Of a stretch of DNA of 46,647 nt, positions 726-37,373 are shown piece after piece. The stretch lies in assembly GCA_021432655.1 (NCBI GenBank), contig MU271181.1, positions 263,189 to 309,835 on the forward strand, written 5' to 3'. The notes under the pieces were generated by a model. It ran no database searches. It was not told the origin of the DNA and worked only from the letters and a program-made list of their open reading frames with translations. Numbering within the stretch: position 1 is the first letter of the stretch; each line of letters begins with the position of its first letter. The translations under genes and the position numbers were made by a program. This DNA comes from Atractiella rhizophila. Taxonomy: Eukaryota.

Positions 726-886
726 GGCAGTCGCCACAGGGGTCGGAGTTGGTCGGCGATAAAACTGGTTGACCAGTTTTGACCTGCTTTTTGGCTTGCA
801 AATTTTCTCAAAATTGAAGCGCAAAACCATTTTTCGCTTGCGGCCTCCGGCCGCTTGGGCAAACCCCTGGGGGCGACTAGTTTGCC
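726..886 (+). repeat. Multi-hairpin dispersed element, copy 1
   Basis: Ends GGCAGTCGCCACAGGGGT...ACCCCTGGGGGCGACTAGTTTGCC. Internal AAAACTGGT-TG-ACCAGTTTT (761-780), AATTTT-CTC-AAAATT and GCGGCC-TCC-GGCCGC. Aligns by eye to 19737-19900, 23542-23676 and 37217-37373. Ends 75 bp before the ATG at 962. Confidence 0.9.
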
Positions 887-961
887 ACTTCCCCCCCGCA
901 TCAAATAGCGTTCCTTCAGAACATTGCCAGTACCAATCTTTGTTCTTTACGAGCCAGCACA

Positions 962-3365
962 ATGTCAACTCACGGCGAAGTCTACGAGTTACTTTTTCAA
1001 ATAGTGCAACCTGGTGATGAAAATCACATTGTCAGCAAAACGTCTGTTATCGAATTTCCTGCCCATAAAACAGTGGCAGCGTTAGAGAAGGCGATGCGTC
1101 AGGAGTTTCCGGAATATCTCAGCGACCACAGATTTGACTTGTGGATGCTGGACCCTAAGCTGCCCAGCAAGGAGCGACAACTTCTGAAGACAATCAAGTT
1201 CCCCTCCGAAAGATTGAGAGAACTTGACCCTGCGTTTCGGCTAGCAGATTATTGGCAACAAGCGCCCGCCAGTGGATTTCTACATTTCGTGGTAGAGTTA
1301 CGTCTGCCTTCTCAAGAACGCCCACCTTCTCGTAAGGATTCCTTGGTGATCCTTCTTCCACTGACCTGTTGCCTAGCCTGGCATTATCATGGTAGCCTGG
1401 ATGAGTATCAATCCCGCGCACGTATCAAGACATCGACAAGAGGATCATTCTTGCCTCACTCTCTTCTTGCAGAAAACCGAATCTTCCCGGTCGACGTCCC
1501 GCGCACTAGACCGGACAACTCCCATGAAGATGGCAACATTGCAGCGCTCCGCCAAGCGAAAGCCACGTTAGGCAAACCGTTCCTGCTCCCCGTTGATCCT
1601 GACCCCGCTATGCTCGCAATCGGAACATCGCTTCAAAATGAGTTTTTCGGAGGTGCTGGGACCCATGGCCGAAGAGCAACGAAGGCAGAGCTTAGCCATT
1701 ATCATCATGTTGCTGTGGTCGAGGTACCTATGGAGAGATTTTTAGACGGCAAACAGGCGTATGTCAACTGGACCTACTTGATGCCTGTCGCGAGCGAGCT
1801 TTCCTGCCAGAGATATGGATTGATCAAAGTGTCCGAATTCGTCGCGTAAGCTCTCGCTCCTTATCGTTGACCGCTGCCAACGTAACCTATTGTTCAGGGA
1901 TAAGTCATGGCCAATTTGTCTCTATCCTTGCACTCCTGAATCGTCAAACAACCCCGCCATGCAGTACAAATATCAGCCTCGCAGCGACTTTCAGATTCGA
2001 CAGCATGGGATCCCCCAGGTTCTTGTCGAAATACAATCAAAAAAGACAGGAGAAGATCGGATTCGGATGTTACTGCAAGGTGCAGCCGTTGTCAGAGTTG
2101 TGCAACATGGAATCAAAAGTGATGCAGCGAAACCACATATTCTTATCGCTTACTATATCACCAACGAATTGGTCGCCCAGCAATATATATTGTGCGTTGA
2201 TCCAAACACAGTCAGTCAATTTTCTAGCTTGTCACCTGTTGATTCTGATTTGTCACAGGAAGATGTGTTTTACTCAGAGAACACGTTTGATCTCACCCGT
2301 CGTGAGAATGCATTCAAGTTTCTGCTTGAGTTATACAACTGCCGATTGGTGATCGACTCGGACGAAAGCGCAATGAAAGCCACAGCGAAGCGCATCGAAG
2401 AGAGCTTGAACTCTTTGGACCAGCTTCCGTCATTCACGGGCGGTGATACTTCGAATAAGAAACGCAAAACTAGTCATGGAAACGAGGGGACCGAAGGACA
2501 CGAAGGGAACAAAGGCGGGCTTCTTGCGGTCCCGCAACTGCAATCTTACCTCAGTAAGTTGGGATATCTATTGGAGTCGCCTAGGGCTGAAGGTTCCTGG
2601 AGTCCATTGGAAAATGTGCGTATTTCAAGTTATCGAATTCATCATCCTGAAGTATGACAATAGCTTTCACATCCGTCAGTGGTGGCGGCCTGCGCGCGAG
2701 ACGGAACCCGCGTGATGATCAAGCGCGCATGGAGCCTCAGGGAAGCTCAAGTTCAACAATGTCTGGCGAGTACCTCCGATGTTAGAAACCACACGATGAA
2801 CACTCGCGAAATTTTAGAATTCCAGCAAGACACGCTACTTGTTCTTCCTCGTGGGATTCCTTTGCCGTCCTTACGTCTGGATACACCGCTCGCAATATTC
2901 TTGGCAGAACAACTGATCGAAGGCGTGGGTTTCATGCACAGTCATGGATTTGTACATCTGGACTTGAAACCGAACAATCTCGTCGTCATCTCCAACCTCC
3001 TTAAAATCATCGATTTTGGATTGTCTCGCAAAGTCGCCCGCGATACTGTCTTGAAAGGATATCGCGGAACTCGACCATGGGTGGCCCCTGAACTTGGAAC
3101 TGAAGACGGACCAGAGCCAGCATTTCATCCCATCCCCGCTGATCTATGGGCTGTTGGTCGGATTATTTCTCGTTTCTTCGGTCCATTCCTTCCGCCGGGG
3201 CACTATCTTTTTCATCTTGCATCTCAGTTGATGTCAAAGGATCCTCAATCGCGGCCGCGACTGGACGATTTTAATGGGAGACCAAAGAAAAGAACATTGG
3301 AATCATTAGGCCTGGAATGCGGATGGAGCAATGGCGTCAAACGGAGACATCTCATTCCCGGTTAA
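962..3365 (+). CDS. Crinkler(CRN)-like protein: ubiquitin-like N-terminal header + PD-(D/E)xK-like nuclease + Ser/Thr kinase-like domain, ~731 aa, intact
   Basis: Exons 962-1331, 1377-1830, 1898-2210, 2259-2615, 2664-3365 splice at GT..AG into one frame. The 45- and 48-nt introns 1 and 3 are in-frame and are inferred from the paralogue. CRN-like TVAALEKA..FDLWML..LADYW..LHFVV; nuclease-like PRSDF..LVEIQS..DRIRMLLQ; kinase MIK, HLDLKPNN, DFG, GTRPWVAPE, DLWAVG; basic NLS-like SNKKRK and KRRH. Confidence 0.85.
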
Positions 3366-4399
3366 GTTCGGTGCTCAGTTGGTGAAGTGGCAGCAACAGC
3401 ACATATGAATAGCAGTGTTCGAATTGCTATTAAAACTGCCATTGTCATTGTTAGCGGAACGCATACGCCTCCCTACAAATGAACGTACACGCAATCTCAT
3501 CCTTACCTCTAAAAGCCATCTATTCTTGGCATGAGTCATAAAACACACTTTTGAGCATCCATACCTCCCTCAGCAGGCACATTGAAACGAAATGAATTAC
3601 ACCATCTTACTGAAGATGCTTGTGCCTTTCTGAAGCCGTGAGGAAATTTTGTTCTGAAGGGGGTAAAAAAATGTGTTTCATACTGGACTCAAACCCTCAT
3701 AACAGTCACAACAGGGTTCAAGGGCATGATGAGGAATGCAGATCGCAGTGCCACTAGAGCATATAGGAGTGGCGAAGCAGTGGAGGCAAAAGAACAATTG
3801 ATGAGCAGTGAATATGTGAAGAATAGTCAGTGTCGTTATCGCTCATGACTGAGAGGTTGACTCTTGCCTGAACTTAAATGAATTTTGGAGAGGAGCACAT
3901 CCTGAAAGTACCCAGACCCAGGCCAGTGAGTGTGGAGGGGTAAGATAGGTGTAGTGAATTTATGTGAGTTGGTCTGGTACATTCCATGAGTTCCATCATT
4001 ACAGAGGAAGGATAGGATCGACAGACATTGCCTACGCATGAAGAACATCATGTCGTCCAATATCCATGCCACCTGCCCATCATCAAGTTGACATCAACAA
4101 ACACCATTACATCCATTACAGAATGGAAAATGGAGGAGGTAAGAGAGACATACTGTCAGGACCTGAGCACTCACAAATTTCCATCTCCAATAATGAACCA
4201 GGGCAGTATCAGTATGGTCGAGAACGGCGGAGATTGATCATGGTAGTCTACGAGATATTGGGGTACTTGCTTGAGGTTTGAGCGCAAGCTGCGCTGTGGG
4301 AAACCTGAGGAAAGGTGAAGTGGTTACCATGACATTCTGTAAGAGAAATTTGTGGTCAAAAGGGCGGCGACAGACCTAGTACGGTAATCATCCATGTTA

Positions 4400-5014: not shown

Positions 5015-5038
5015 GGCTCTGCTGACACAGGTCTGCTA

Positions 5039-5136
5039 GTTTGCCGCCTCAGTTTTGATGAGGATTTGCATTTAGCCGACCACTTTTGGAGCAGTTTTTA
5101 ACCCCAACATGGCCGAACCCTAGGGTGACGGGTCTG
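5039..5136 (-). repeat. Diverged partial copy of the multi-hairpin element
   Basis: Reverse complement reads CAGACCCGTCACCCTAGGGTTCGG...AAAAGTGGTCG...GCAAATCCTCATCAAAACTGAGGCGGCAAAC, the same module order as the full copies. Confidence 0.6.
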
Positions 5137-5399
5137 GTTCTTTTTCACCAGTTGCTGGAATAATGTGCATCACATAAAAAATCAATGAGCAACGAACAAC
5201 TGTAATGCAGTGCAAAAGGGTTACACAGCAAAACTACAAGATGTCAATATTCAACCAGATCAAAAAGGACACAGATGAAGAGAAAAGGAGTCAGCTGATT
5301 TTGAATTGACCACGCAAGTCAGTGAAGAAAGTGCCTTCTGGATTGACCAATCCATCAGATCTTTTTGTAGATGAGAACAACAGAAACATACCTCACTTC

Positions 5400-6897: not shown

Positions 6898-7287
6898 CAT
6901 GCATCACATTTGTTGGTATACTGACCAAATTCCTTCACGATGACCTCTGGACCCAACCTTTACAGATCTATTATCAGCAATGGGCTCAAAAAGGTCAGCA
7001 AATAGAGGTGTACCAAGTTGTCCTCAACTTGATTTACTGAACCATCTTCGCTAAGCCAAAATCTGCAATCTTCACGACAGGGTTTATCCCACGAGAAATG
7101 AGAATGCTACCAGGCTTGGGATCGTGATGAACAATCTTTTTGGCATGAAAGGCAGTGATAGCTGGGAAGAACATCTTAGCAATATTCCTCGGGTCTTCGT
7201 CGAATAAACCTCCATGTTGTGAGACATAACTGTGGAGGTCTCCATCATTGACCTATTCAAGGATCAGACAAAGGTCATTGTTGTCGT
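6898..7287 (-). pseudogene. Internal fragment of a Chk2/Rad53-like kinase, paralogous to 22088-22487
   Basis: Colinear DNA match to 22088-22487, including an intron. Translates NDLCLILE*VNDGDLHSYVSQHGGL..HAKKIVHHDPKPGSILI..VKIADFGLAKMVQ. Confidence 0.85.
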
Positions 7288-7427
7288 CAAATCATTCGTT
7301 GAGTCAAGTCTCTAACTGGTTCATCAACATTAAGGAGGCACAAGCATCTCCTGATGTTGTACACTGATTTGAAGGAGTCAAGGTCAGAGGCAAGCCTACT
7401 GGGATGATGAAAAAGACTTCCAGGAAC

Positions 7428-7870
7428 ATTGTGCGCCTTCTCCATTTGCCACTTGCGCACTTGCGTGTTTAGTTTCCTTTGAGCATCTTCTAGAACTGTG
7501 GCGAATCCTTTTTGCCACAGGGATTCTAGCAGGGGCTTGAGAGCCAATAGTATTCCGTGCAGGGTGGTGGAGAGCATTGGCAAAGGCGTTTTGGTTGATG
7601 CTGGTTGACGTTGTGAACACTACAGGAAAACTGCTGCGCGACTGCAGCCTGATGCTGCATTGAAGGCTGCTATATCTTCCTTGAGATCGACTCAATCAGC
7701 CTCAGAATCACTTCATAGACATCCAGGGAGCCTATTAGGATATAGAAAACTATGTGTTGCAATTTTTGAATTTCCGAGTCTGCAAAAAGTCAAATTTTGA
7801 ATTTCCTAACCCTCTCTACTGAGTATGAGTCTCGCACTTGCAGGTTTACAAGCTTTTATAACGGAGACTC
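7428..7870. repeat. Two displaced fragments of the dehydrogenase pseudogene at 39.0-39.15 kb, in opposite orientations
   Basis: 7428-7526 is an inverted match to 39058-39152. 7820-7870 is a direct match to 39010-39061. Confidence 0.8.
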
Positions 7871-12729: not shown

Positions 12730-13659
12730 TAAGGCTTCTCAGTTTTTCCACCTCTTTCTTCAACAGGAGATAAAGCGATGTTACCCGTGCTGCTGGGACA
12801 ACGGACTGCTGTTGTCAGGTGTTCATAGGGTCTATTTCGGATGCTAGTAACAGGAAGTTAGGGAACCCATTCGTATAGTTGGATAGAGAGAAATTACATA
12901 CGGGATGCGTAATTGAAGTCTTCAACATCATTATCTCCTTCACCATCAGACCAATGTATGAAACCAAGTTCGGAATCTGAATCTGCAAAGTTGTAAAGAG
13001 GCTTTGTGGCCATATTAAAAGTACGATGCTTTAGATTATTCCCGGTCTATAATATATGAGGGATGCCTTTGTGGTGGTAAATATCGCTAGGGAGTACACA
13101 CGTGAAATAAATTTTCGAAATCACAATTCGGCCAGCTGTATGCCCTTCGCTTGCTTATCACAGTGAATCTGCAATGGAAGAGAGTGGAAGAGGGTATGGG
13201 AGTGTAATTACTCCAAATTTTGTAATGGACAGTGGACAAAACTTGCAAAAAGCTCATATGACCATCATGCCTCATATCGAGAAGCAGATCAGGCGATAGT
13301 GTGGATGGAGTTGTGAAACTGGCATTGACATCCATTCCGAGGAGGAGAGGAGGCCCAATATGGAGGAGCAAGAGACCTTAGGTGACAATCAAGGGGAGTT
13401 GCACGTGCTTGTTTTACATACCAAGTCGAGTTAGACTTGCTGACGACAAAGTTATGGTAATCAAGGCAATTTTGGCACCTCTCACAATGCTAACTATACT
13501 TCCCCTCCTAGCCTTCCTGCTGTTGCAGCCCCTACTGATGACACCATTCAAACAATACTGGATGAACTCGAGCAGCTTGAATATCGGCGACTGGTACGAA
13601 ATGGATGGGCTCGTCCAACGATGGGAGAACAAGGGGAAGAGGAGCCGTAAGATGATTTG

Positions 13660-14150
13660 AGTGAAAATGACGAGGAGGAGGATGAGAATGAGGACAAAGA
13701 GGACAAAGAGCCGGATTAGGGTCCTGGAGGTGAGGAAAATGAGAACCGTTATGGAGAGATGGAGGAATGTAAGTTCAGGTGATCTGGAGATCTACACGTT
13801 ATTATTGACCTTCAACCGGACTAGTGGATGAGCTGGCTGCTAATCTTTTGGCAGTTGGACAAGCAGCTCCATCATATTTCTATCCAACAGGCGACACTCT
13901 GTGAATCTGACCTACAGGCTCACCAAGAGCGAAGATGAGAAAGTATACTCCATTAACGTACGAGCAAATTATATCTCTTGAACTTTTCCTCATCTGCCAT
14001 GGATGTGCTGCTGGGGATTTGTATGACGATCTTTGTAGCTGGGTTCAAGAACGATTTGGGACAGGCACACTTTCTCTTGATCGAATAAGACGTTGCATCA
14101 GGGAGAAGTGCCATATTGTGCCGGAAGCCTGCCCGGAATCCCAGACCAAA
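13660..14150 (+). mobile_element. Possible N-terminal remnant of a CACTA/En-Spm-like fungal transposase
   Basis: Acidic low-complexity stretch, then LTYEQIISLELFL..YDDLCSWVQERF..LSLDRIRRCIREKCHIVP, resembling the segment before the DxC..C motif of such transposases. Truncated at that point. Confidence 0.4.
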
Positions 14151-14785
14151 TCGCGTTCGAATAGATGGGTCCATCAAGAGTTAAATTCTTCAGAAGATAC
14201 GCATGCTTAGCTGCTTTCTTGATCTGTCTGGGCAACGGGTACTACGAGTGAAGGTGTTGGAAATCGACGAGCTGAGGAGCGGAGCTAAGTACGACTTGGT
14301 TACGTCTGGCTGAGCTCTTACAAATACATGAGCACCAGGAAATGGAACTCTATGTGTTTATATAGCTTGCAGCAGTGGCAACTAGAAAGTAGTAGAACAT
14401 TCCAGAAAGCTAAGGAACTTTGCCACTGAGTGGCATGAAACTAGACTGCAAAATCCAACAGGAGGGGAGCAGGCATATGACGGAGCGGCATTGCTGTTAG
14501 AGGCACAGCACTAATTGCAGGGTGCCATTCGCTTTGAAGGCTGAGAGGATGCCAGAGTACTTCCATAACACAATATCACCTCAGCCAGAGCGGTACTATC
14601 GTTACCTCTGTCAACTTGTGGAATAGTCTCAATTTAGTACGGAAACCCGGAATATAAGAAGATATAGGACACAAAATGCATATAGGCATTAGACAATACG
14701 ACAGTGCCTAAGTCCAATCCAGGGATGGAGGAGACCAGGGTCAGGAATGATGTAAGGAAGAGGAGCCGGAAGCTCAATGTTAAGG

Positions 14786-15568
14786 TCAAGGAGAGGGTGG
14801 GAGGTAGGGATGCCAAGCAGGGAGGGCGGATAGACATGGAGACTGACAAGTGGGAGGCGAGTAGGTTGACGAAGGAAAACATGATCCCAGGGGGGTCATA
14901 ATGGGAGGAAGGTTACTGAGAAGGTGGGAGAACATGAAATTGGTGGGACGATAGCCAGAGGGTGGAGGCTTGGATGCAGGGGAGTGGCTGGATCTGATCC
15001 ATTTCGAGGACGTAGACAAGAGTAGGAGTCTCGGAGGTGTGGTGCTTGGAGATCTGGGGGCCAGAGTGGGTAGATGGTGCAGGGTGATGCGAACTAGCCC
15101 TAAGTGCCTCGATCTGCGACAGGAAGCAAGCTTGCTCATGCTCTGGGACTCAGTCCCAAGCAGCAGCAGCAATTTGGGCATATGAAGGAGAAGTGGTAGC
15201 AGGAGGGGGAGGTGCTTGTGTAGGGACAGCTGGGGGAGGGGAGCAGCCACAACCTGCTTATGCAGAGAGATGTTCTCTTCCACGACCTGTGCATATCTTT
15301 TGTCCAGAGCCTCAAGACGGGAAGAAACTTCCTTGAACAGGGGTAAGAGGCTGCGTAGAACTGGCGTGAAGGAGTTGGATGGGTCTGCGGCCCTCAGGGC
15401 CAATTCTACGCTATCCACGGAGTCATTCCCTCTTCTTCTCTTAGATGAGACCTCACCACTAGCATTATGGGAACTACCGCCACTAAGTACATCCTCGTCA
15501 CTGCCGGCCTCCTTCCTCTTTCTACCACCCCCACTCGGCCAGGGTTTTGCCGGGTTTGATGAGCTCAT
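14786..15568 (-). other. Degenerate ORF with basic N-terminus and coiled coil, retroelement ORF1/Gag-like (uncertain)
   Basis: RKRKE..SSKRRR then LFKEVSSRLEALDKRYAQVVEENISLHKQ followed by a Pro-rich tail. The later part looks frameshifted. Confidence 0.35.
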
Positions 15569-15654
15569 TCAAGCTGGTTTCCTATATACTCTCCACCTAT
15601 TGACCAACAATGTACAATTATACTGCCAGAGTTCTAAGTATTGGAGGGGGAATC

Positions 15655-15804
15655 TGTTGAGACTAGGATTCTTCCTATCACACTGGCAAGCATGAAGGAA
15701 AAAATCCTTGTGAGGGGAGGGGGTATATGTGTATTTTACATTGTGGGGCATTGCAAGGCACTCATGTGACCATAGTTGTCACGGTTTGTCGCTTATCTCC
15801 AACA
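15655..15804. mobile_element. Solo LTR (family A) with 5-bp TSD GAATC
   Basis: TGTTGAGA...TCTCCAACA, GAATC on both sides, homologous to 5733-5918. Confidence 0.9.
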
Positions 15805-16033
15805 GAATCAGCTTTGTACCCGCTGCACTACTTCCACATTAACAACCACTGACCAAACAGAGGCTCATAGTCACACAAATTCTCCTGGTCCACTGGACAA
15901 GTTGCTGCCTACTGTGTTGACACCAGAATCTTAATAGCTATGCTCAAAAAAATACCATAGATCCTTAACAGCGCGTCTCTGTACATCCAATAATAATTGT
16001 ATTTATCTCGGATAGCCTGGGAAACCTCACTAT

Positions 16034-16163
16034 TGTTGGAGATATCCAGTGTGGTACGATCACCGCACACGGGTGTACGTACGAACGGTTGATGACCTGC
16101 TCTCCCTAGGTGCTTACCACCAGGGATGAGCAGATCCACAACTATGCATGTTATTTCTCAACA
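16034..16163 (-). mobile_element. Probable short solo LTR (family B) nested in the pogo end
   Basis: Minus strand TGTTGAGAAAT...ATCTCCAACA. Shares ACACCCGTGTGCGGTGATCGTACCACACTRGATA with 32554-32586. Flanks do not form a perfect TSD. Confidence 0.55.
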
Positions 16164-16805
16164 TACTGAATTTCAGAAAAGAATCACATTCTTTTGCTCA
16201 GATACAGTGCTCCGATTGAGGAGTACTCATTCTCAAAAGACTGAAACTTGAGCCCGCTCAGAGGGTCGTGATGACAGATGATGATGAGTTGCGCACTTTC
16301 CTATTTAGGTAACAATCGATCCAGCACATTCAACTCTCAGCCAACTTCCGTAAGCAATCCCCAACATTTCAGCATGAGAGACCATCTATTATGCTTTAGT
16401 GGTTATGTATTAATGATGCAAGTACTCTATTATCCTAATAATGTGAAATACCACTCAAATTAGATTCAGCTTAACCAGCTTCCGGACATCCCATTGCCAT
16501 TGAATCCGTTGTGCATCCTAAGCTCTCAGGGAAGTATTGTGCGAAATTTGGCAATGGAGGACCGTGCTGTGTGGAGGAGATTAAAGTCATGGTGGTGCTA
16601 CTGGGGTAGAATGGATGGTATTTGATGTTGAAGGCTCTGATGTGGTGAGTATGATTGCTGCATCGGTTCAGGGTCCTGTGTGTGAAAGAAAGGTGTTTTT
16701 GCTGGTGGGAGGTACAGTCCAAAGTTGACCAGTGACGGAATTTGTTTTGCTGAAGCACTGGCAGCAGCTGGATGGTCTGATGGACCGGCACATTGTGCTA
16801 CCATC

Positions 16806-19736: not shown

Positions 19737-19900
19737 GCAGACCCGTCGCCCAAGGGGTCGGAGTTGGTCGGCGATAAAACTGGTCGACCAGTTTTGACCT
19801 GCTTTTTGGCTGGAAATTTTCTCAAAATTGAAGGCCAAAACCATTTTTCGCTTGCGGCCTCCGGCCTCTTGCGCAAACCCCTGGGGGCGACCAGTTTGCC
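19737..19900 (+). repeat. Multi-hairpin dispersed element, copy 2
   Basis: GCAGACCCGTCGCCCAAGGGGT...ACCCCTGGGGGCGACCAGTTTGCC with perfect palindrome AAAACTGGTCGACCAGTTTT (19776-19795). Confidence 0.9.
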
Positions 19901-21499: not shown

Positions 21500-23450
21500 T
21501 GCATGAGCCTTCCCAAGCTTGAGCTTTCAGGACCAGGATTTGCCGGTACAACAGAGGAGTGGGTGAGAGCAAAGTTGAAGGAACTACAAAAGCTAATGGC
21601 TAACGCATCCAGTGTCGAATCTTCAGTAGGGAGTTGGCCTTCAGTTGTGGGTGGAGAAGAGTTGGTCAGAGACCTGTTGGCTTCTGGAATGAGCTGGATA
21701 CTTTTTGTTGCAGTGTATGACAGATTGGGAGCAAGTGACTCCAGAAGCCATCATTGGGGAAAGGATGGCTCTAGTCATACAGTTTTCAACACTAGGGGAT
21801 TCGCTTCATCCAGGATCCAAGGCGTTGACAAGCTTCTGTGACGCTCATCCGCTTGTCTACCCTTTGTCTACATAGCCGATAGAGGAAGTCGTAACCTGTA
21901 CATCACTTCAACACAATGCAGCAATGTATCCATGAGATCTGTCATACATTCACGAGAAGTACTCTTGGGCAAATCCTTGCACTTGGGAACACACCACTCA
22001 AGACGTGTGGCGAGAGGGACTTCCGAGTTTTCAGGGTCGAAAGGAAGGGCATTGATCATACAGGAGAGGATGATGAGGCCTAGATCCCATGCGTCACATT
22101 TATCGGTATAATCACCAAATTATTTCACGATGACCTCTGGAGCCGACCTTTACCGATCCATTATCAGCAATGGGCTCAAAAAAGGGAGGAAGGAGAGGCG
22201 TACCAAGTAGGTGTTTCACGAGTCATCCACAACTCACTTTGCTGGACCATCTTCCCAAGCCAAAGTCTGCAATCTTCATGACAGGGTTCATCCCATGAGT
22301 AATGAGGTGTTATCAGGCTTAAGATCCCGATGAACAATCTTTTTGGCATGAAAGGCAACGATGGCTGGGAAGAGCATCATAGCAATCTTCCTCGCTTCTT
22401 CCTCCGATAAACCCCCACGTTTTGAGACGTAAGTAAGGAGGTCTCCACCATCGATGTACTCGAGGACTAGACAAAGGTCATTGTCGTCTCCAAAGCATGC
22501 GATAAGCTTGACACCGTTTGGATGGTTAATCCCGTTTAGGACCGTCAGCTCTTTCTCAAACATTCCTTTGTTCGCTTCAGACTTCAGTCTCGACTTCTGT
22601 ATGTGCTTCATGGCTCGTGTAATGCTCGTCCTACGCTCGATCACGCGACATACCTTCACAAAAGAGCTCCTGTCACAATGAAAGTAAATGTGAGACAACA
22701 TTGCGAGAAAGGGCTAGAAAGAGAGCTGCGGAAATTCTGAGAGCCTCAATGAAATCATACTTCCTCCGAACACCTCCGCAGAATGCGAAAGGATCCTGAG
22801 CGAGGGGTTTATTCGGGTCTTGCCAATGAAAACCTACATCATAAATGGTCAATACCTGCAGCAACTGGGAAAGAAAGGGGTCCACCAAGTCCTGAATCCG
22901 AGTGGCTTCCCACTTTAACCTATGTGCTCATCAGCAAAAGTCATCCGTACAATAATAACATGCACCATATCTCCATGCTTGAGTATCGTAAGTATTCCTT
23001 TCCCGACTTTCTTCCCTCTTATATAGGTCCCATTCATCAACGTATCCTTCAACTAAACGTCCTGTAGATTGGGATCTCTCCAAATCTCGCAATGGATATT
23101 AGAAATAATCTTCGCGTCCAAGCGAAGGTGATTCTTTCTCGCTCTTCCAATAGTAAGGATTACTTCCGGAGGCTGGTTGAAAGGGATGGGGCAAAGAGAA
23201 GCACTGGTGGGCATCATCCTATCCGCCATATCACAAGCACCGCCTGAGTAAAGGCACTTGGAGAACTAAGCTGGATTGACGGCACACACTCCCCAACACC
23301 CTATTAATGCCTTCCAATGTTAGCTGTCTGTCGTGTTAAGGGAAGAAAGGTGAGCAAACATGGACCTGGAGGTAAAGGCTTCAGATAGCCCATGATCGCA
23401 TCTTCATCCCTCTGCATCGCCGGTTGAGCCACCTCAAGCTCTTCCTGCAT
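21500..23450 (-). pseudogene. FHA-domain Ser/Thr kinase (Chk2/Rad53/Cds1-like) pseudogene
   Basis: FHA at ~22960-23170: LTIGRARKNHLRLDAKIISNIHCEIW..V*LKDTLMNGTYIRGKKVGKG..LKHGD (in-frame TAG). Kinase RAMKHIQK..EKELTVL..LVLEYIDGGDL..HRDLKPDN..KIADFGL carries two 1-nt deletions and a degenerate Gly loop. Outer limits approximate. Confidence 0.85.
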
Positions 23451-23541
23451 CGAAGGTATCTCCGTGAGCGAAAAATTATCTGTCCCATTCAACAAATAGT
23501 TGAGCAAACGTAAGCTTGACAAGTGTGTCAATGCCCTCGTC

Positions 23542-23676
23542 CGTCGCCCCAAGGGGTCAGAGTTGGTCGGCGATAAAACTGGTGACCAGTTTTGACCTAG
23601 CTGCAAATGTTCTCGAGATTGCAAAACCATTTTTCATTTTCCGCTTGTGGCAAACCCCTGGGGCGACGAGTCTGCC
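23542..23676 (+). repeat. Multi-hairpin dispersed element, copy 3 (shortened hairpins)
   Basis: CGTCGCCCCAAGGGGT...ACCCCTGGGGCGACGAGTCTGCC with AAAACTGGT-G-ACCAGTTTT. The third hairpin is reduced to CCGC-TT-GTGG. Confidence 0.9.
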
Positions 23677-23679
23677 CAC

Positions 23680-24500
23680 TCGTCCACCTCGTCAAAGACA
23701 ACCTTCAAGAACTAGACATGGACGGGAGTACTGGAGGCATCCCAAGGCACTATGACAAGGAAGATCAACTGGTCGCTCCGATCCTACCAAGTTTGACAAC
23801 GCTTAAGCTCACCAGCGCTTTCTTAGGGAACCTGATTGATTCTTTTCCACACCTCCGTCTCTCATTACGGTTGGTGCGATTGAAGCTAAAAAAGGTTCCA
23901 ATAATGGCGGCCGCACAAGATGCCCAAGCTCAAGAGTTCCAATGTCACTTTCGGCATTTGCAGAGATTGACCCTGCGTAGTGAAACTAAAGAGCTGACAG
24001 TCAAGCTCATGCGACCTTTGTTCGACCACATCTTGCATCCCCACACCCTCAGGCGACCGGACACGGAATTGACCGCATTTGTGTCTGCAGCAGAGCGAAG
24101 TCTTTCCTCCAGATCTCGCGACCTCGAATTCTCGACATTTTCCTTGAGAGTTCCTTCGAGACTTTGGACTTTCTCCTCACATCAGGTCACACAATTCCTG
24201 GAATCTAAGACATCGCCTCTCAGGCAGTTTCTTTAAACCTAATTCACGCTGGGGTGATTGTATTTTTCATTCTTCATCTTTCAGCAATGGTTTGTGTGCT
24301 ACTAAAAGTCTCGAGTTCCGATTTCGTGTTGCTTCGAGCTGGCGGCACTACAGCTCTTATGTAACTAACTATATCTACGTTGGCGACGGAGGATATACAC
24401 CGTTTATTACATTTCTTTCCACTGCAACTTGGATGGATCACCTGGCAAACCTCAGGTTTCAACATCTGTCTCATGGAGTTCCAACCATTGACTTAAACTG
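23680..24500 (+). pseudogene. Leucine-rich-repeat (F-box/RNI-like) gene fragment
   Basis: NLQELDM..LPSLTTLKL..LVRLKL..FRHLQRLTL..PLRQFL periodicity. Begins directly at the edge of element copy 3 without a recognisable N-terminus and contains stops. Confidence 0.5.
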
Positions 24501-25139
24501 ACAACAATGATCCAACTACGAAAGCTTGACGGAGCGACTTGGGACAAGATTTGAGGTTACAGGATTGGAGTTCTTCAAGGCGAATGGGACAGATCATGAT
24601 ACTGAATGATCATGACGAGTGACCCATGGTCAACATCTAATATGGTCGAATATTCTGGGAAAATGCTATGTAACAATATGTGACCTCTGCAAATAGGAAG
24701 GTCCAGAAAGATCAGTTTTATTCCCTCCGTCCGTTATCAGAAATGCTTCTGGGTCAAGATCTGAAAGAGATGTAAAATTGCTATAAAGGCATGCGAAAGA
24801 ACAATGGGACGACAAGAAAGAACGTCAATAAAGGGACGACCACTTCATATAACATCTGGCTCAAAAGCAGTCTTGTCGCCTTCCCACGGGAACTGATTGC
24901 TGAGATCTTCTCAAGTTTGCAACGTTTATGTTGTTGCATTCGCTCTCCTTCCTAATATAATGCTGTTCATCCCCACATGGTACATTGAATTATGAAGTGA
25001 CAGGCTGCATCAAAATCAAAGTGCATGAAGGAGACGGTATCAGACAGACAGATGATCTGGGAGGGATGCAGGCAGGTGGATGGGATATTGAGTGAAGTGT
25101 GTTTTTTTTTGCTGCTCTCAGTCTTCCACTAATGACTTT

Positions 25140-26259: not shown

Positions 26260-28258
26260 TTAGAGCGATAATGCAGGACAATGGTTGGACCAACCAGAAA
26301 GCCGATTCCTCCTTGAGGTTGCTTCACCTAGTCCCAGACAGACTTTTGCCTTCTCCTCCTCAAAGTTCATCTCCGTCTCATGCCCCGAAACTCACGCATG
26401 TGAAAAGTCGATGAGATAGTCTTTCTGCGATCCGAAATAGAAGTTTTGAATTCGAATATCGCCGTGAAGCACCCCCTTTTCATGCACCCTCTTCAGCGCC
26501 ACAAAGGCTTTTTGTCTAGTCACCACACATCAAATATAGCTCCATAGCCTAGCACAATCCTACCTCGCTTCCAGCTGCACCACGTTGATGTCCTCCTTGA
26601 ATTCTCCTGCCAGTATTTCCATCACAATGATCCCAAATCTCTCCTCCCTCCCAAATCTTTCCTCCACTCCTTCAAAGCTGCCATAAACTTTAGGAATGTA
26701 CTCTCCCTGCAGACCGGAAAGCCGCTCATACACCTCTACTTCTCGTCGAACATAGTCCATATTAGTTTGACTAGGATGTTCCATCTTTCGCGAACCGTCA
26801 AAGTACTTAACGGCCACCTTTCTTTTCCCCCAGATAGCCTTGAAAACCGTCGCGAATGCTCCGGAGCCTAGTTCGTCTGTGATTTCCAATAATTCCTCAC
26901 AGCGCTCAGACTAGAGAAATACATCAGTGTAAAGAACTGTTGATTCCAAGGGTCGAAAGGAATGAATTACAATGAAGTTATAATGGGCTTTTTATACCTT
27001 AAGGAACTCGGTAAAATGAGAGAAACGGCAAAGGGGAAAGAAAACTAGAGCCACAATGACAGTGGCACGAATGCAGCTTAAAACGGTACCAAACTCTGAC
27101 AAGAACCTGACGGGACAGTGACGAACTGGTGTCCCGATTGCGTAAACTGGGTGACGCTTAGAGTTGAGGACAGACTTGGTAAACACCACATCCAAATCCG
27201 GCTAAATTGTGGTTGACGACTGTGTAGCACAATTAGACCACTTACTCGTGTCCCTGCTCCTTGGTTGGCTATCGTGCCTTTCTTCCCATCATGATTGCGA
27301 GCCGGAAGGGTGGTTATAGAAGATCCAGTCTGCGTTACTGACTGAGACACTTGAGTGGGGGAGGAAGGGTGATGGGAGACTAGAGGAAGATCCAAATTGT
27401 CCAAACACATCCCAACCATCGTCTTGATAACTCAATGCCCAACGACATCATACTGGTCGGAACACAATAGATAAAATCCATTGGGCGTAATGACTCGTTG
27501 GAAAAACAGGAAGGATTTCCCCCCGAAGAGTAGGCCGAAAGGCGCACCGTTTATAGCCATCTTTTTCCCGAGCTTGCAGATAATGAGGAAGTGGCAGAAG
27601 GATGGAATTAACATACTTTAGTGACTATAGAACGTGCTCCTTCTTCTGTTCCATCACCAGCAGAGTACAAATCAGTCCCGGCTCCGTTTTCATTCTTTCC
27701 CATGGCGACAATCTCATCCCCCAAGGTAGCTGAGACGGTGATACCTTTGAGCTCGATTTGGATTTTTGTGGTCTGGTTCAGCATGAGCCTTCCGTCACTC
27801 CGGGTACCGAGGCTGGTGGGATTGCGTTCAAGGTGCAGAACAAGGAAGGTTGCATCTTTGTATGCCGCATTTACAGCGTCAACCTAAGAGGTGAACGCAT
27901 GTGTATTAGCGATTGTTTCGTCCCTAATAGGCTTATTAGCGATATCGTCTAGATAGACAGATAATTTAATTTTCAGCTGATCCGATGCCTGTTTAGAGCC
28001 CAAAATTGTGTCAGCTGCTTGGCAGACAGTCTCAAGGAAGTTTGCTTGATAGCGGATGTGGTAGGGTCTATGGATGGCATAGGTTGACCTGAAGTTTTCA
28101 GGGCTAGTGGAGCGCGTTGGATCGATTACAGTCCGAAGTTCCGTACCGACAGGAAGTATCGCGTCGTCGAGCAGATTGACAATGGTGATAGACATTTCCA
28201 ATCTGAGTCCAGTTTCCAGTTTCTTCGATGAATTGTCACTCGCTTCATGGACATTCAT
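26260..28258 (-). pseudogene. PD-(D/E)xK nuclease + protein-kinase fusion gene, inactivated by in-frame stops
   Basis: TRSDGRLML..IQIELKG nuclease motif. Kinase LGSGAFATVF..VAVK..RREVEVYERL..IPKVYG..IIVMEI..HEKGVLHGDIRIQN..LIDFSHA. Introns splice in frame. Stops TAG 27884, TGA 27432, TAA 26992, TGA 26392. Confidence 0.8.
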
Positions 28259-28353: not shown

Positions 28354-28451
28354 GACTCTATTGTAGCGAAATTCTACGGATTTCTTTTTTTCTGGAGCTG
28401 TCCGTCTAAGGTATTGGTGGGTTGGTGGCAGCCGGCACAACAGGACACGTC

Positions 28452-28471
28452 GGCGCCCTCTAGGGGTTTGC
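28452..28471 (-). repeat. Terminal fragment of the multi-hairpin element
   Basis: Reverse complement GCAAACCCCTAGAGGGCGCC versus element end GCAAACCCCTGGGGGCGAC. Confidence 0.5.
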
Positions 28472-28513
28472 ACTTGCTCGAAGGATGCCAATCTGCCGTT
28501 TGCGTATGGAACA

Positions 28514-30926
28514 ATGTCAGCTCGCGAAGAAGCCTACGAGTTACTTTTTCAAATACTGCAGCCTGGTGATGAAAATCTTCTCGTAGGAGAAACTTCTGCT
28601 GTTGAATTTCCTTCCAACAAAACAGTGGCATCGTTGAAGAATGCCATTCGAGGGGAGTTTTGTGAAATTCTGGGTAGAGGAGAGTTTAGTTTGTGGAAGC
28701 TGGACCCAAAGCTATCAGACAAGGAGGAAGATCTGAAGACTATCAAGTTCCCCTGCGAAGGATTGGAAAAATTCGACCTAAAGTTGCTGCTCTCGGAGCA
28801 CTGGCCAAACCCCCCCCCGTCTGGACATCTACATTTTCTGATCGAGTTACTCCCACCCCCAACGTTAGGTATGGAAGCCATTCCATCAATTGCTCCATCT
28901 GATTTGTTTGTTAGACTGGCACCGTCACGACTTACTGGATCATTACCAATCCCTGGCGAGCTTCGTGACGCGCGAGGCTGGATCATTCAAACCCTTTGAT
29001 ATCGTCGCAGAAAACAAGATCCTTGAGGTAAACAACTCCGAAGACCACGACATCGTAGAGGCTTTCCGCTTAGTGAAGGTCAAGTTGGGACGACTATTCC
29101 ATAACCCTCTGAACCCTGACGCGGTTACGAACGCCGTCGCTACATCGCTGCAAAACAATTTTTTCGTAAGAAGGCCGCCGAATCAAGACCGAAAAGCTTC
29201 AGCAGCAGAGCTTCTTCATTACCATCAGGCTGCTACTTTACCTCCAAATCTGAATCGATTTTTGGATAAAAAGGAGACCTACTTTAATTGGACCTACATG
29301 ATGCCTGTCGCGAGAGAGCTCTCCCAACGCCGACATGGATCACAGGAGGTGTCCGATTTCATTGCGTCCGTAAACATACCTTGTCGTTGATTTATGTTGC
29401 TGCTGATATGCCGTATTGTTCAGGAATAAAAACTGGTCGATTCATCTTTATCCTTACACCCCTAACGTCCCCGCCACCGCTGACTCGCCGGCAATTCCCA
29501 GGAAACAATACAAATACAAGCCTCGTAGCGACTTTCAGATTCTACGACATGGGATCCCTCAAGTTCTCGTTGAAGTACAATCTGCCGACAACTCGGAACA
29601 AGATCGTTATCGAATGTTGCTGCAAGCTGGAGCTGTCGTTAGGGTTGTGCACCATGCGATTGGAAGAGATGTAGCGAATCTCCACGTTCTTATTGCCTAC
29701 TATATCAACAACGCGTTGGAGGCGATACAGTACTTATTGTGTATTGACTCAGATTTGGTGCGTAGATCTTCGTGGCATTTACCATATCAACTCTGACATT
29801 TTATAGGAAACCGTGAAATACTCCGAGTACAAGTTTGATCTGTGCAAGCCAGAAGAAGCCATCCAGTTTCTGCTTGAGCTATACAACTGCCCAGATGTGA
29901 TCGATTCGAACGATGGCAAGATCAAACCTAAGGCAATGAAAATCAAAGATAGCTTGGGTAAGGATGACTTCCCGTCATTCATCGGCGCCTCGACTTCGAA
30001 TAAGAAACGCAAAACCACTCATGGAGGGGATGGAAACGAGAGAAGCGATGGCGGACTACTTGCGGTTCCTCATGCGGAAGCAAACCTCCGTAAATTGGGA
30101 TATCAGCTGGAGTCCCGTCGAACTAAAACTGCATGGAGTCTGTTGGGAGATGTGCGTATTTACGTCTTTTGATCGCTGTGCTGATGAGTGTAACCAGACG
30201 TTGACGCCCTCCGTTGTGGCTGCCACTGCCCGCGATGGCGCACAGGTGATGATCAAACGAGCATGGAGCGCCAGGGAAGCTCATATCCATCAGCTCCTCG
30301 CCGGTATATCCGATGCCAAGAATCACACAATGGACGTTCGTGAGGTCTTGCGATACCAGGACTCCTCACTGCTTGTACTTCCCCGTGGGACACCTCTCCC
30401 TTCTTTATGTCTGAATCAGTCTCTGGCACTATCTTTGGCGCAACAACTTGTGGACGGCGTGGGATTCATGCATGCTCGCGGGCTTGTTCACCTGGATCTC
30501 AAGCCCAATAACCTCGTCGCCATCTCTAATGTCCTTAAGATCATTGATTTCGGATTGTCTCGCAAAGTCGGCGACGACACAATCTTGAAAGGATACAGAG
30601 GGACTCAATCTTGGGTGGCTCCTGAACTTGGAACAAAGGACGGACCACAGCGAGGATTTCGCCCCATCCCCGCTGATCTCTGGGCTGTTGGTCTCATCAT
30701 TTCTCGTTTCTTTGGCCCATCCCTTCCTCCCGGCCACTATCTTTTTAATCTTGCGGCTCGGTTAACGTCAACGGACCCTCAATCAAGACCACGACTGGAC
30801 AAATTTAATTGGGGACCAAGGAAAAGAGCTTTGGACTCAGCCGAGCTTGGACGTAATAATTTGGGTATGCAAAGTGAAGTAGTTGAAAGTGAAAGTGCTA
30901 AACGTAGGCATCTCATTCGTTGTTAA
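28514..30926 (+). CDS. Second CRN-like ubiquitin-like + nuclease + kinase protein, ~732 aa, intact
   Basis: Exons 28514-28868, 28915-29350, 29424-29757, 29807-30151, 30198-30926 splice in frame, with the same four intron positions and phases as 962-3365. Motifs LWKLDP..LHFLI, PRSDF..LVEVQS..DRYRMLLQ, HLDLKPNN, DFG, WVAPE. Confidence 0.85.
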
Positions 30927-31300: not shown

Positions 31301-31385
31301 GGCAAACTCGTCGCGTCGAGGGTTTTGCGCTCAATTTCGGTGAAATTTGCGCCGCATCCCCCTGCAAACACAAAAGTGGTCGACC
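31301..31385 (-). repeat. Shortened diverged copy of the multi-hairpin element
   Basis: Reverse complement GGTCGACCACTTTTG...GCAAATTTCACCGAAATTGAGCGCAAAACC...GCGACGAGTTTGCC. Confidence 0.75.
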
Positions 31386-32553
31386 TCGAATATTCTTGAA
31401 TGCAAAAATGCAGTAATGATTAACAATTCATAATGAAGATAATTTAGACTGATCCAGTGTCTATGAAAAGGAATGAGTCTGTCTCTGAAGCAAAAGAAAA
31501 ACAAAATAAAAGATATAGGGATGTGGAAACTTGAAATGTAATCGCACCTTCCGACATGAATACCCAATATGTTTTCCGTTAAGTCACTTGAACGTAACGC
31601 ATGTGATTCTGTTGTTGCCATGTATAACATGTAATAACGATGAGTGAAAATTGAAAAGGGGGAGCAAAAAATATTCACCTTTATTGCTCCACCATTATCC
31701 ATCAAATTTCAGCAGTGAGTAGGATGAGTGCAAGATCTGAGAGCCAGCTACAACGACGTATAATTCGTAATAAGAATGAGCTAATATTTAAAAAACGCGG
31801 AGGAAAAAGTATGCACCTCATCTATGTCAAAAAATGCAATTTCCCGTTGCTTCGTCATTATCCACACGTATTTTAGACGTGAGTAGCGCGTACCTGGCAA
31901 ACTCGATCATCATTGAAACGTATAGGGACCACGTACTCACCGATATACGTGACATTGCTTTGAAGGATATTGCTTCAAGTGCACATGGATGCAGGCAGTG
32001 GTTTTGAGATTATCAGGATGGAGAGACACACCTGCACAAGGCGACGTGCCAGGAAATATGGGAGGCCTGCAGGTTCTACCTTGGGGAGTCCAACGATTAT
32101 CAGGAGCATCAAAGGTTTTCTTGACCCTTCCTCAGTCAGGGAGGTGGATTTATGGAAGAGCCTTAGGGTTAGGGATGAAGGTGGAACCAATATCAAGAAA
32201 CCATCAGAGTCAAACAAAGTAGGACTCCAAAGCAAACTACAGATGAAACACTCATAGTGTCGGGTTTGAGCTGATGGAACTCAACACACTAACTCCATTC
32301 TCCATTCCCCAGCCAAATTTGACTGACAGAACAGGTCTATCATAAAGGAATAATAGTAGTAATAATGGCAAGATACTGGCATTTGAATGTCAAGCCCTCT
32401 GTCTTCAACATACATATGCTTTAACCAAAGATGCTTGAACTGATGTGAATCCTGATTATTTCAAAACTTGAGGATCAGATGTACCAATGAGCACTGATAA
32501 AATTGTTCCTGCCTTGGGGGCTTTGTTCATCACTGCTTGCTTACAAGCTACGA

Positions 32554-32594
32554 CACCCGTGTGCGGTGATCGTACCACACTAGATACTTCCCAC
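32554..32594 (+). repeat. Fragment matching the 3' end of the family B LTR-like repeat
   Basis: ACACCCGTGTGCGGTGATCGTACCACACTAGATACTTCCCACA versus the reverse complement of 16034-16075. Confidence 0.7.
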
Positions 32595-33238
32595 AAGCAT
32601 CATTCCAGTGTGAGTGAGATCCCCAACAGAAAGGTCCAGGGATCCTGAACGGTAGCGAGACCAGATATTGGTATGATGGAATGATGCCACTGTAACAAGC
32701 AGTCTCTGAATGGGCTTTTTGGGTCATTGCAAGGCTATTTGCGTGTACTCTGTCGTTGTGCGGATTGGAAGGTTTAGAGGCTCGTAGGCGACTAGGCGAT
32801 ATGCCGTCATCCTAGGGGCGTGATACACATGGGTAACAGTAATGATGCCCAAGAAGCTGAGCTATAAGTTTGCAAAAGCGACAACTGCACTTGCTTTGAT
32901 GACCTGTGCAGCCGTTAGCTTTTGCACAGCCACTGAGTTTCTTCTTACCCGATCAGTGCACACACAAACGCCTGCTTTTCGGGTTCGAGTTCGTGCTCCT
33001 GTACATAAGTTCGATTTCAATTTGTTGTATTTCTATCTCCAGATTCCTCATGTAAAGTCACTCTGTGAGACGAGGAAACAGCAGGGAGAGATCTTCGATA
33101 TCATGAACAAAACGTCAAGGACGATTATCCGTTGGAGAAAGGTAACGAGAGGAACAATTTATTCGATTGGTTGTTGGATTCGGTACAGAACAAGACTCGC
33201 GGACCAAAAAGAAGCGATAAGGGCCAGATTAGGTATTC

Positions 33239-34730: not shown

Positions 34731-36560
34731 TCAACAAGAACAGGAGGAGGGCGTGCATTGAGCAATCTGAAGCATCGCCTTGACGTCTTTGATCAAAACA
34801 GGTTTCGTGAGTACCTGATTCGCCCCAGCCTTTATATATCCAGTTTGGTCTTCCCGTAATGCGTTCCCCGTGGCACCAACAACGAAATCAGTACGTCCCA
34901 TGCTTCGGAGCTTCTTGATCGTCTGCTCCCCTGTCATCACTGGCATCATGTTATCGAGAGTGACCTTCAGTCCAAGCTTCAGCTATCGATTTGTTCGCGA
35001 CAGGAGAGATGGACAGACCATATCGAAGTATTTAGGAAACATGAGTAGGTCATCACTTCGCACCCTAATTTCGTGAGCATCCGGCTCATCAACGTTCTCG
35101 TCAGTGGATCATCTAAAAGATAAAGGTTCCTAAAGTTCTCTTCGTCAGTATAGAATAGAGACGAACCATCCACCACTAAAACCTGCAGTTTTTGAACAGC
35201 AGGTGTAGGTGTGGTAGGCTGACGTTCAGGAGCGCCAGCAGACAATATCTCTTAATCACTTCCTCCAGAACCAGCACGCTTCACGACCAACTTCCCAACC
35301 TCAACCTCGTTTGGAGGAACATCTGGAGGTATAGGTTCAGAGTGCGGCCTGTGCGGTAAGTGAACCGCCAAAGGAGGAGTGAGGGGACGGAGCTCGATGT
35401 CTGCCTTCTCCCTCTCAACACCTTTCTCATGAGCCTTCTCAGGCTCTTCCACGATCCGCTTCCTACTCAACAGATCCGCTTGTGAGTCGTTCGGGTCAGT
35501 CGTATTCGTCATGGTTGTTCTAGAAGCTCGAGAGAAGACAGGAGATGGAAAAGGCGGTGACGGAAGGGAAGTGTTTCGATTGGTCAGAGGCGATTCGTTT
35601 GGCGTCGTTGCATCGTCCTCGTCCAGAGTGTAGGGCAGGAACGAGTCTTTCCCCAGCTGCCGTTGCCTCTCCACTTCCTCCTTCGTCCTTAACCTGTACA
35701 TGAACTCGACCCAAAACGTCGATCCGCTGTTTCGCTGAGACTTGACACCCAGCCGACCTCCCATGAGCGTCACTATCCCAAAACGCTTTTTGCTGAGTGA
35801 GCTAAAAAGGAGGACGAAACAAAATACCGATTTGTCGCACGATTGCCAGTCCCAAACCTGAACCTGTGTTGCTCTCCCTTCCTAACCTTGCTTGAGAATA
35901 AGGCGAGAATAGGTTGCTTTCGTGCAAATCCCTCGCTTCACCCATGGTAGCAACTCAGCAATTCCACTCGCTTAGTCGAAACGGAAGAGAGGCTCACGTC
36001 GTATTCCGGGACCTGCATCTGTAACAGAGATCTTGACGATCATACTGCTCCTCCGCACTTCATCGTTTATTCCGACTCCATCCTCCGGCCGCGCAGAAGC
36101 TGTGACCATCCTCTGCTCCTGTTCTTCCCCTCCATCCGTCCACGCACTGGCGCTAGCAGCGAAATCTTTCACCTTCATCGCCAAGTTTAAGCGGGTGAGG
36201 AGGGACGATTCTCCACACGCATCGAGGAATTGAATGCCTTTCCTCTCCTCCTCCTGCGTCTCTTCGGGATCCGGAGGATGGGGATGTTCCGCGGTAGGAT
36301 AGATGGGTTCAGTCTTGACCCGTATCGCACCCTTTCCTTCCGGCGTGAACTTGGCCTATCCATCCAAAGTACCCTCGCATCCACTTCAACTTGAACTACC
36401 CACCATCCTTCGACTTTAACCATGACCGCCGTGTCGTTCATGCTAGGATGTGAAATGCCCAGAATCAGCCTACTCTAGCAAACATCAGCATCTCGATGAA
36501 ATGTGACTGTCTCTTCAATGACGTACCTTCGAATCCCTGAACGGTTCTCATCACACAGAT
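34731..36560 (-). pseudogene. Hybrid sensor histidine kinase (HATPase + receiver), 5'-truncated and degenerate
   Basis: KFTPEGKGAIRV, ISVTDAGPGI, LFSPY, GSGLGLAIVRQI, LMGGRLGVKSQRNSGSTFWVE. Receiver VLVVD/DDPLTR..LDNMMPVMTG..GATGNA..LTKP. Apparent deletion/frameshift near 35040-35060. No HisKA domain seen. Confidence 0.8.
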
Positions 36561-37216
36561 ACCGAGCCCACGACATCCTGGGCAGTTTTCTTTCAACAAT
36601 CTGATACCCATACTCTCCACTCCTTGAGCTCACTCCATACCTGCAATACCTTCAAACCGTTGGGCAACTTCCCACCCCTGTACAGGGAACAGTCTTACAG
36701 TCTATCAACAGCCAAGTGGAGTGTTTTGTGGGCTACAACACTGAATCCTGAATGAGGCAAGACAGGCGGGAAAGGGGGAACGATTGCAACATCGGACCCG
36801 TCTGATCGACATCAAAAAGATCAAGAGCGGCCTCTACCTCAAATTAAGAGCGTCGCTTCCATCATGGCAACAACAGCAGGAGGTTATATCTTACACGATC
36901 AAGCCCCCGAAGGAAGGACAGTTTGCGTCTGCTCTGACTGCGTCGATCCATCAGACTCTAGTCGAGGTCTCCCTCAAATGCGAAAAACAGAATATGAGCA
37001 TCAACGCCAAGTTGTTTGTGCCATCATCCACCTTTGCTAGGGGCTTAGCCCCTTGGACCCCAGCCCCATGTCTAGTTTGTTGTGGAGTTTGGGACATTTT
37101 TGCGATGATTCTGGCAGGATTAGGGGGAAGTGGGAAGCCGCCCGCTGGCAGCAAACCTAGCTGAGTGGCTGCGCAAGTAACAGCTCCTGGTTGTCAGATT
37201 TGGGACAGGATTTGGA

Positions 37217-37373
37217 GCAGACCCGTCGCCCAAGGAGTCGGAGTTGGTCGGCGCTCAAACTGGTAGACCAGTTTTGACCTGCTTTTGCTGCAAATTTTTC
37301 AAAATTGAAGCGCAAAACTTGGCAAGACCATTTTTCGCTTTGCAGCCGGACCCTTGGGGGCGACCAGTTTGCC
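37217..37373 (+). repeat. Multi-hairpin dispersed element, copy 4
   Basis: GCAGACCCGTCGCCCAAGGAGTC...GACCCTTGGGGGCGACCAGTTTGCC with AAACTGGT-AG-ACCAGTTT and GCAAATTTTTCAAAATTGAAGCGCAAAAC. Confidence 0.9.

Follow-up and report, generated by a model that had tools for sequence, protein, structure and literature searches.

What kind of element is the sequence of about 160 bp that recurs along a 46,647-nt stretch of contig MU271181.1 (the whole of which is referred to here as the window) in Atractiella rhizophila, a basidiomycete that is early-diverging in Pucciniomycotina? The original prediction described a dispersed element with terminal inverted repeats and three internal hairpins. It was interpreted in terms of selection on structure, as a structured noncoding RNA (ncRNA) or 5' leader, a single-stranded DNA (ssDNA) origin or recombination site, or an unusual MITE (miniature inverted-repeat transposable element). 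The last option fits: the copies belong to one dispersed family whose ends are sharp and whose termini are inverted, and they are unusual in lacking a target-site duplication (TSD). We regard the element as probably a new family of non-autonomous terminal-inverted-repeat DNA transposons, MITE-like and not assigned to a superfamily. This interpretation starts from what was observed directly, namely the repeat itself, its ends, its dispersal, and the architecture of its motifs.

Copies of the element in the window

Four full and two partial copies lie within 46.6 kb (Table 1). The four near-full plus-strand copies of the original prediction (c1–c4, 135–164 bp) were recovered at the same positions by direct reading, a repeat search, and self-blastn. 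The closest pair in self-blastn was c1–c2 (93.6% identity over 157 nt), followed by c2–c4 (78.5% over 177 nt), c2–c3 (77.2% over 162 nt), c1–c4 (76.6%), and c1–c3 (74.9%), and the divergence among the pairs at 75–79% was mostly due to indels. An nhmmer model returned c1–c4 with E values of 1e-40 to 6e-55, which are circular for these copies because the model was built from them.

Three partial minus-strand copies had also been predicted. Two of them were recovered weakly by nhmmer, at 31301–31385 (E = 1.6e-4, terminal motif at 31302–31316) and at 5038–5137 (E = 7.9e-4, terminal motif at 5123–5137; predicted as 5039–5136), and both are plausible as diverged copies. The third, 28452–28471, was not recovered in the window at E ≤ 10. 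It matches at 17 of 20 positions, which is no better than chance: we calculate that about 0.4 matches this good would arise in the window at random. The copy at 5038–5137 includes AAATCCTCATCAAAACTGAGGCG, and a similar stretch is inserted in one genomic contig joined to the right end of the element, which hints at a related subfamily.

Neither a known type of coding capacity nor an Rfam family was found for the element, and Pfam assigned no family to the minus-strand open reading frames (ORFs) crossing copies at 522–968, 19589–19951, and 23304–23630. One minus-strand frame is open through the whole element and beyond in c1, c2, and c4, and the three ORFs have FNFEK..KAGQNWSTS..ADQLR in common. 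This is probably a chance frame that was passed to all copies. In size, under about 800 bp and with no capacity to encode a transposase, the element corresponds to a MITE.

Table 1. Positions of the copies, of their parts, and of other repeats in the window
Feature	Position	Strand	Description
c1	726..886	+	left terminus with 4–5 nt deletion (GGCAG-TCGCC); found by direct reading, repeat search, nhmmer, and self-blastn
c2	19737..19900	+	most complete copy; taken as reference
c3	23542..23676	+	left terminus aberrant/truncated; internal deletions; right end abuts F-box-like pseudogene
c4	37217..37373	+	both termini intact; 9-nt insertion; without hairpin 3
Diverged copy (plausible)	31301..31385	-	5'-truncated, internally deleted; right terminus kept (GCGACGAGTTTGCC)
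Diverged partial copy or related subfamily (plausible)	5038..5137	-	left terminus kept (CCAGACCCGTCACCC); without hairpin 1
c2 left terminal inverted repeat	19737..19759	+	GCAGACCCGTCGCCC plus AAGGGGTC
c2 right terminal inverted repeat	19877..19900	-	reverse complement begins GGCAAACTGGTCGCCCCC
Hairpin 1 (c2)	19776..19795	.	perfect 20-bp palindrome; two inverted copies of the terminal 10-mer
Hairpin 2 (c2)	19815..19829	.	A/T-rich palindrome AATTTT-CTC-AAAATT
Hairpin 3 (c2)	19854..19868	.	GC-rich palindrome; helix 5, 76% of cells paired
Minus-strand ORF over c1	522-968	-	148 aa
Minus-strand ORF over c2	19662-19958	-	98 aa
Minus-strand ORF over c4	37157-37405	-	82 aa
Low-copy repeat pair	6898-7298 vs 22088-22501		
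Low-copy repeat pair	7428-7524 vs 39058-39152		inverted
Low-copy repeat pair	3560-3654 vs 38179-38272		inverted
Low-copy repeat pair	16033-16081 vs 32549-32596		inverted

Termini and internal motifs

The element has terminal inverted repeats, as originally described. The pattern GCARACNNGTCGCCC, with up to two mismatches, has nine matches in the window, whereas 100 shuffles averaged 1.31 and never exceeded 5, and eight of the nine matches fall at the reported copies. The left end begins with GCAGACCCGTCGCCC, and the right end, when reverse-complemented, begins with GCAAACTGGTCGCCC; both ends share a motif of about 15 bp in inverted orientation (GCARAC..GTCGCCC). The repeats are about 16–23 bp long, the larger value (about 23 bp) including the adjoining GGGGT/ACCCC. 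In an alignment of five sequences, the terminal stems, helices 1 and 2 with their 18 pairs, are paired in 84% and 90% of cells, respectively.

The terminal motif is also repeated within the element. The terminal 10-mer occurs in direct orientation at about positions 26 and 42 of the element and inverted at 48. With up to three mismatches, c1–c4 have four, six, five, and six matches, respectively (one of which is built in, as the 10-mer was derived from c2), as compared with about 1.0–1.3 per shuffle; 63, 1, 7, and 1 of 2000 shuffles attain the counts of the respective copies. Hairpin 1 thus consists of two terminal motifs in inverted arrangement. A third, diverged copy of the 10-mer is located in direct orientation at approximately 19762–19771. 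The center of hairpin 1 varies among the copies (TG, CG, G, and AG), as had been described. This variable center is a CpG at the dyad, and genomic contigs have no alternative letter there at 10% or more. The reverse strand of all four full copies also matches the family model (E values of 4.6e-6 to 9e-3); the whole unit is therefore a loose palindrome. Terminal sites reiterated subterminally are the look of transposase-binding ends in several class II families.

Dispersal in the genome

The distribution of the element outside the window was analyzed using two sets of source-sample contigs (X1 and X2) aligned on c2 with 100 nt on either side. Both sets come from one sample, probably the source of the assembly, and thus do not give independent support. 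The contig pieces on c2 numbered 194 in X1 and 152 in X2. The summed word depth in X1 was about 565 in the left flank as compared with 13,600–65,700 inside the element (approximately 25–115x), a measure that is not a copy number. At the left end, contigs stop at 19736 (nine in X1 and nine in X2) and 19735 (three in X2), and at the right end at 19900 (seven in X1 and six in X2) and 19901 (five in X2). Beyond these points, the agreement with the flank consensus among contigs is 0.47–0.59, near the level of unrelated sequences, and the flanks therefore differ between places. Taken together, the stacked contig ends and the disagreeing flanks indicate sharp common ends at many different places. The element is a dispersed family with ends at 19736/19737 and 19900/19901, and we read its copy number as tens to about a hundred.

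Compared with c2, the 194 pieces of X1 comprise 66 with an identity of at least 99%, 31 at 95–99%, 72 at 90–95%, and 25 under 90%. That half of them (97/194) are at least 95% like c2 points to a young family. At 19813, 19834–5, and 19867, most copies depart from c2 and resemble c1. Among the flanks of the copies in the window, the best pair score (10) was that of the right flanks of c1 and c3, which 11 of 500 shuffles attain in 20 uncorrected comparisons; a right flank common to these two copies was accordingly taken as chance.

The depth profile bears on the idea that the unit is no independent element but a longer transposon's termini, fused or paired and left as a foldback or solo-terminus remnant by internal deletion or recombination of ends. 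The lost TSDs and chimeric flanks would then be due to recombination between copies. Depth in X1 is 62,800–65,700 at 19754–19779 and 13,600–17,200 at 19858–19896, so that the left part exceeds the right two- to fourfold, and individual contigs match over the left 48 nt alone before diverging (loose end at 19784). In the window, c3 with its truncated left end stands at a junction with a 5'-truncated pseudogene, the first of two kinase paralogs lies between c1 (plus) and the minus-strand copy at 5038, and the minus-strand copy at 31301 comes after the second. However, nearly as many contigs stop at one end as at the other (9 and 7 in X1; 12 and 11 in X2), indicating that complete short units predominate, and the two kinase loci share nothing beyond the gene itself. 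We consider such an origin unlikely; it would differ from a MITE-like transposon in origin only, the element remaining of the same kind.

The family is previously undescribed. Strings from the element were not found in a text search of the literature, and a literature search returned no paper on transposable elements of Atractiella rhizophila; the available portions of the wider Atractiella and Pucciniomycotina literature contained nothing on this repeat. A wetland metagenome (X3; 0.05 of words) gave no contigs on the element. A 20-nt bait outside the hairpins hit 9 and 20 loci in public metagenome and prokaryote contigs, respectively, none of them real: all 29 match the bait alone by nhmmer and are therefore chance matches.

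Structural tests of the hairpins

Selection on structure was proposed from the hairpins, and it would be expected in a structured RNA, whether an mRNA 5' leader or a separate ncRNA, that is maintained for its three hairpins enclosed by an outer stem. Covariation was analyzed on five aligned sequences using the structure of the original prediction (39 pairs), a test with low power. The paired cells amounted to 89% as compared with 88.5% in shuffled controls, and the covariation score (0.092) was the same as the shuffled mean (0.092). Only 2 of the 39 pairs were changed on both sides, a number that 57 of 500 shuffles reach, and 20 pairs were invariant and hence uninformative. A search of Rfam, which had been suggested along with the covariation test, yielded no match at the gathering score for the whole window and none at E ≤ 1 for c2.

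The individual hairpins gave a similar picture. In hairpin 2, the compensatory change in the copy at 31301–31385 (AATTTC-ACC-GAAATT; pair 90–94) is real, but in c3 another pair of this hairpin is altered on both sides to G.G, which is non-compensatory. Hairpin 3 was said to pair throughout, and this did not hold: the form in c3 (CCGC-TT-GTGG) would leave a loop of 2 nt, which is impossible in a hairpin, and in c4 the hairpin is absent, with a 9-nt insertion nearby. Some genomic contigs skip 19832–19883. Hairpin 3 is dispensable. Two variants in its stems, 19856 G>A and 19863 G>A, both from CpG to CpA, account for 10% or more of depth, and no change is listed for their pairing partners.

The G-T mismatches had suggested that one strand in particular folds. 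In c1, c2, c3, and c4, the fold z values of the plus/minus strands were -2.67/-3.76, -5.25/-3.14, -3.93/-2.93, and -3.13/-3.25, respectively. The plus strand (-2.7 to -5.3) thus folds better than shuffles, as a structured RNA should, but the minus strand folds comparably: plus is better in c2 and c3, minus is better in c1, and c4 is equal. After composition control, there is no consistent strand preference. Selection on structure is unsupported rather than refuted because five sequences give the covariation test low power. Recent spread thus accounts for the high conservation, and palindromy of the DNA for the hairpins.

Relationship to downstream genes

One argument for a 5' leader is c1, which lies on the same strand as a Crinkler-N-like/kinase gene and ends 75 nt upstream of its annotated start codon (962). 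The ORF at 962–1849 is the N terminus of BT69DRAFT_1234978 (NCBI, Atractiella rhizophila), identical except for one 45-nt intron and with the same first Met. In a test framed post hoc on the strand of the element, five of six copies are followed within 80 nt by an ATG, the first or the second one, that opens an ORF of 50 aa or more, as compared with a background of 18% in the window. This pattern stands as a gene start only for c1. The ORF downstream of c3 is an internal part (from residue ~125–246 on) of F-box-like proteins of 440–555 aa and has no match of similar length, and that downstream of c2 has no homologue even when longer proteins are included. Since these two fail as gene starts, a common 5' leader is unlikely and was disfavored. 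With a folding energy of -60 to -73 kcal/mol, such a leader would, moreover, be expected to block scanning ribosomes. Together with the covariation at shuffle level, the comparable folding of the minus strand, the damage to hairpins 2 and 3, the CpG-to-CpA variants in the stems of hairpin 3, and the empty Rfam search, these results make a selected RNA structure most improbable.

Target sites and mobility

Several observations weigh against the assignment to MITE-like transposons, the first of which concerns the target site. A fixed-length TSD was not found: a flanking direct repeat of 2–10 bp at any common offset is present in none of the three copies intact at both ends (c1, c2, and c4), in line with the original prediction. 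The outer flanks are CAAT and CTTCC in c1, GGACA and GACCA in c2, and TTGGA and GAAAT in c4. Loss of the TSD by decay is unlikely because it should still show at 78–94% identity between copies. In c3 alone, an 8/9 direct repeat (CCCTCGTCC / CACTCGTCC) adjoins the truncated left end, an ambiguous case for which the chance estimate across the offsets tried is about 3–4%. Compared with a textbook MITE, the element has a single anomaly in the lack of a TSD.

The other points concern mobility and orientation. Neither an autonomous partner, i.e. a long element with the same termini, nor an empty site by self-blastn was found within the 46.6-kb window. The upstream regions of the kinase paralogs do not align, and a full copy precedes only one of the two, so that they provide no empty site; no joint across the element is listed for the X1 and X2 contigs. 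The four full copies are all in the same orientation, and the raw folding energy is lower on the plus strand in all four, by 0.6–7.2 kcal/mol. Finally, the downstream-ORF pattern described above is one that a purely selfish element would not predict.

Some of these points would agree with an element mobilized not by a classical DDE cut-and-paste transposase but by a recombinase or a single-strand (HUH-type) enzyme that reads the palindromes or hairpins and makes no target duplication, in which case the hairpins would be functional. The absence of a TSD in the three intact copies, the conserved palindromes, one of them perfect at 20 bp, the lower raw energy of the plus strand, and the location of the four full copies on one strand are consistent with this. 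However, the strand preference is inconsistent after composition control, the element can do without hairpin 3, c3 has a damaged hairpin 2, the flanks are those of neither Helitron2/Helentron nor Spy elements, and no such enzyme gene is located nearby in the window. We therefore regard this mode of movement as quite unlikely. A more specific form, a TSD-less eukaryotic inverted-repeat element whose enzyme reads strand-specific hairpins as in IS200/IS605 ends or integron attC, with three functional palindromes that might affect a downstream gene in an orientation-dependent manner, appears highly improbable.

Two candidates from the neighborhood were rejected. A pogo-like transposon remnant is not the obvious mobilizer, as its termini show no relationship to the ends of the element. 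A composite transposon carrying the kinase gene between copies was ruled out, as only the gene body is shared (67.6%). To judge from identity, the copies are younger than the neighboring kinase duplication because c1 and c2 are 93.6% identical as compared with 67.6% for the paralogs.

Genomic neighborhood

The window is eukaryotic, with a low ORF density and introns in its genes, and a tRNA scan of it was empty, in agreement with the absence of tRNA boxes noted originally. The two kinase paralogs at 959–3305 (plus; BT69DRAFT_1234978) and 28511–30839 (plus) are 67.6% identical in DNA, and both contain a protein kinase domain and a weak Crinkler-N-like N terminus (Pfam E = 0.004, under the cut-off). 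More kinase-domain fragments are found at 22288–22701 and 26560–26889, both on the minus strand. From the paralogs and these extra fragments, the kinase genes look locally expanded in the window.

The pogo-like DDE_1 remnant at 15902–19489, about 250 bp from c2, is bounded by 36-nt inverted repeats (83% complementary), and its transposase frame is split into several minus-strand ORFs. Immediately to the right of c2, the word depth at 19923–19974 is about two to three times the flank level in the source-sample contigs, which suggests another low-copy repeat. Low-copy repeats of 50–400 bp with 79–90% identity, unrelated to the element, occur at several sites in the window (Table 1).

Right beside the right end of c3, a 5'-truncated and frameshifted F-box-like pseudogene is present at 23679–24600 (plus). 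Its homologues have 440–555 aa, and the alignment begins only at their residue 125–246. The match crosses three reading frames, with frame changes near 24095/24098 and 24214. The homology begins at 23679, within 3 nt of the c3 right end, and an N-terminal part of the gene was not detectable upstream of this position.

Comparison with known systems

The element resembles MITEs in being small and noncoding, in having terminal inverted repeats, and in that the whole unit can fold back. As with MITEs, too, tens to about a hundred dispersed and highly similar copies occur near genes, with ends that are sharp and flanks that are unrelated, whereas the lack of a detectable TSD in the three intact copies differs from MITEs. 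As in Ac/Ds and En/Spm, further copies of the terminal motif occur within the ends, some direct and some inverted, and these repeats are putative binding sites. The TSD is 8 bp in hAT and 3 bp in CACTA elements; unlike in these superfamilies, the termini of the element start otherwise and the expected TSDs are absent. The pogo-like DDE_1 remnant is similar in being a class II element with terminal inverted repeats and differs in its unrelated termini.

Insertion without a TSD is known from Helitron2/Helentron derivatives, which carry short inverted termini and a subterminal hairpin. The target is between T and T in Helitron2/Helentron and between AAA and TTT in Spy elements. The flanks of the present element correspond to neither, and its termini are near-symmetrical, unlike those of both groups. 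The Spy group in the PHIS superfamily is reported to insert without a TSD (PMC4482050), as seen here.

Proposed mode of spread

We infer that a transposase encoded elsewhere would bind the terminal and subterminal sites, pair the ends, and move the element. The family would have reached tens or about a hundred places in a recent spread, and this recency would account for the likeness of the copies. The hairpins would arise incidentally from binding sites in inverted orientation and from small palindromes in the DNA, with no selected RNA or ssDNA fold. Some copies were probably inserted beside genes, and c1, 75 nt before a start codon, may alter expression of the kinase gene. Local clustering of copies fits local hopping by cut-and-paste elements. 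MITE families in gene-rich regions have been described in another basidiomycete, Laccaria bicolor, with 4 families and 249 copies (PMC3411680).

The missing TSD is the sole feature that could lift the element above the routine, and no long-standing question is opened by it. If the MITE-like assignment is true, the element represents an unannotated and probably recently active family, which would be useful for repeat annotation of the Atractiella rhizophila genome and a possible marker of recent transposition. It may also feed promoter and 5'-UTR (untranslated region) variation to the fast-evolving kinase and F-box-like families.

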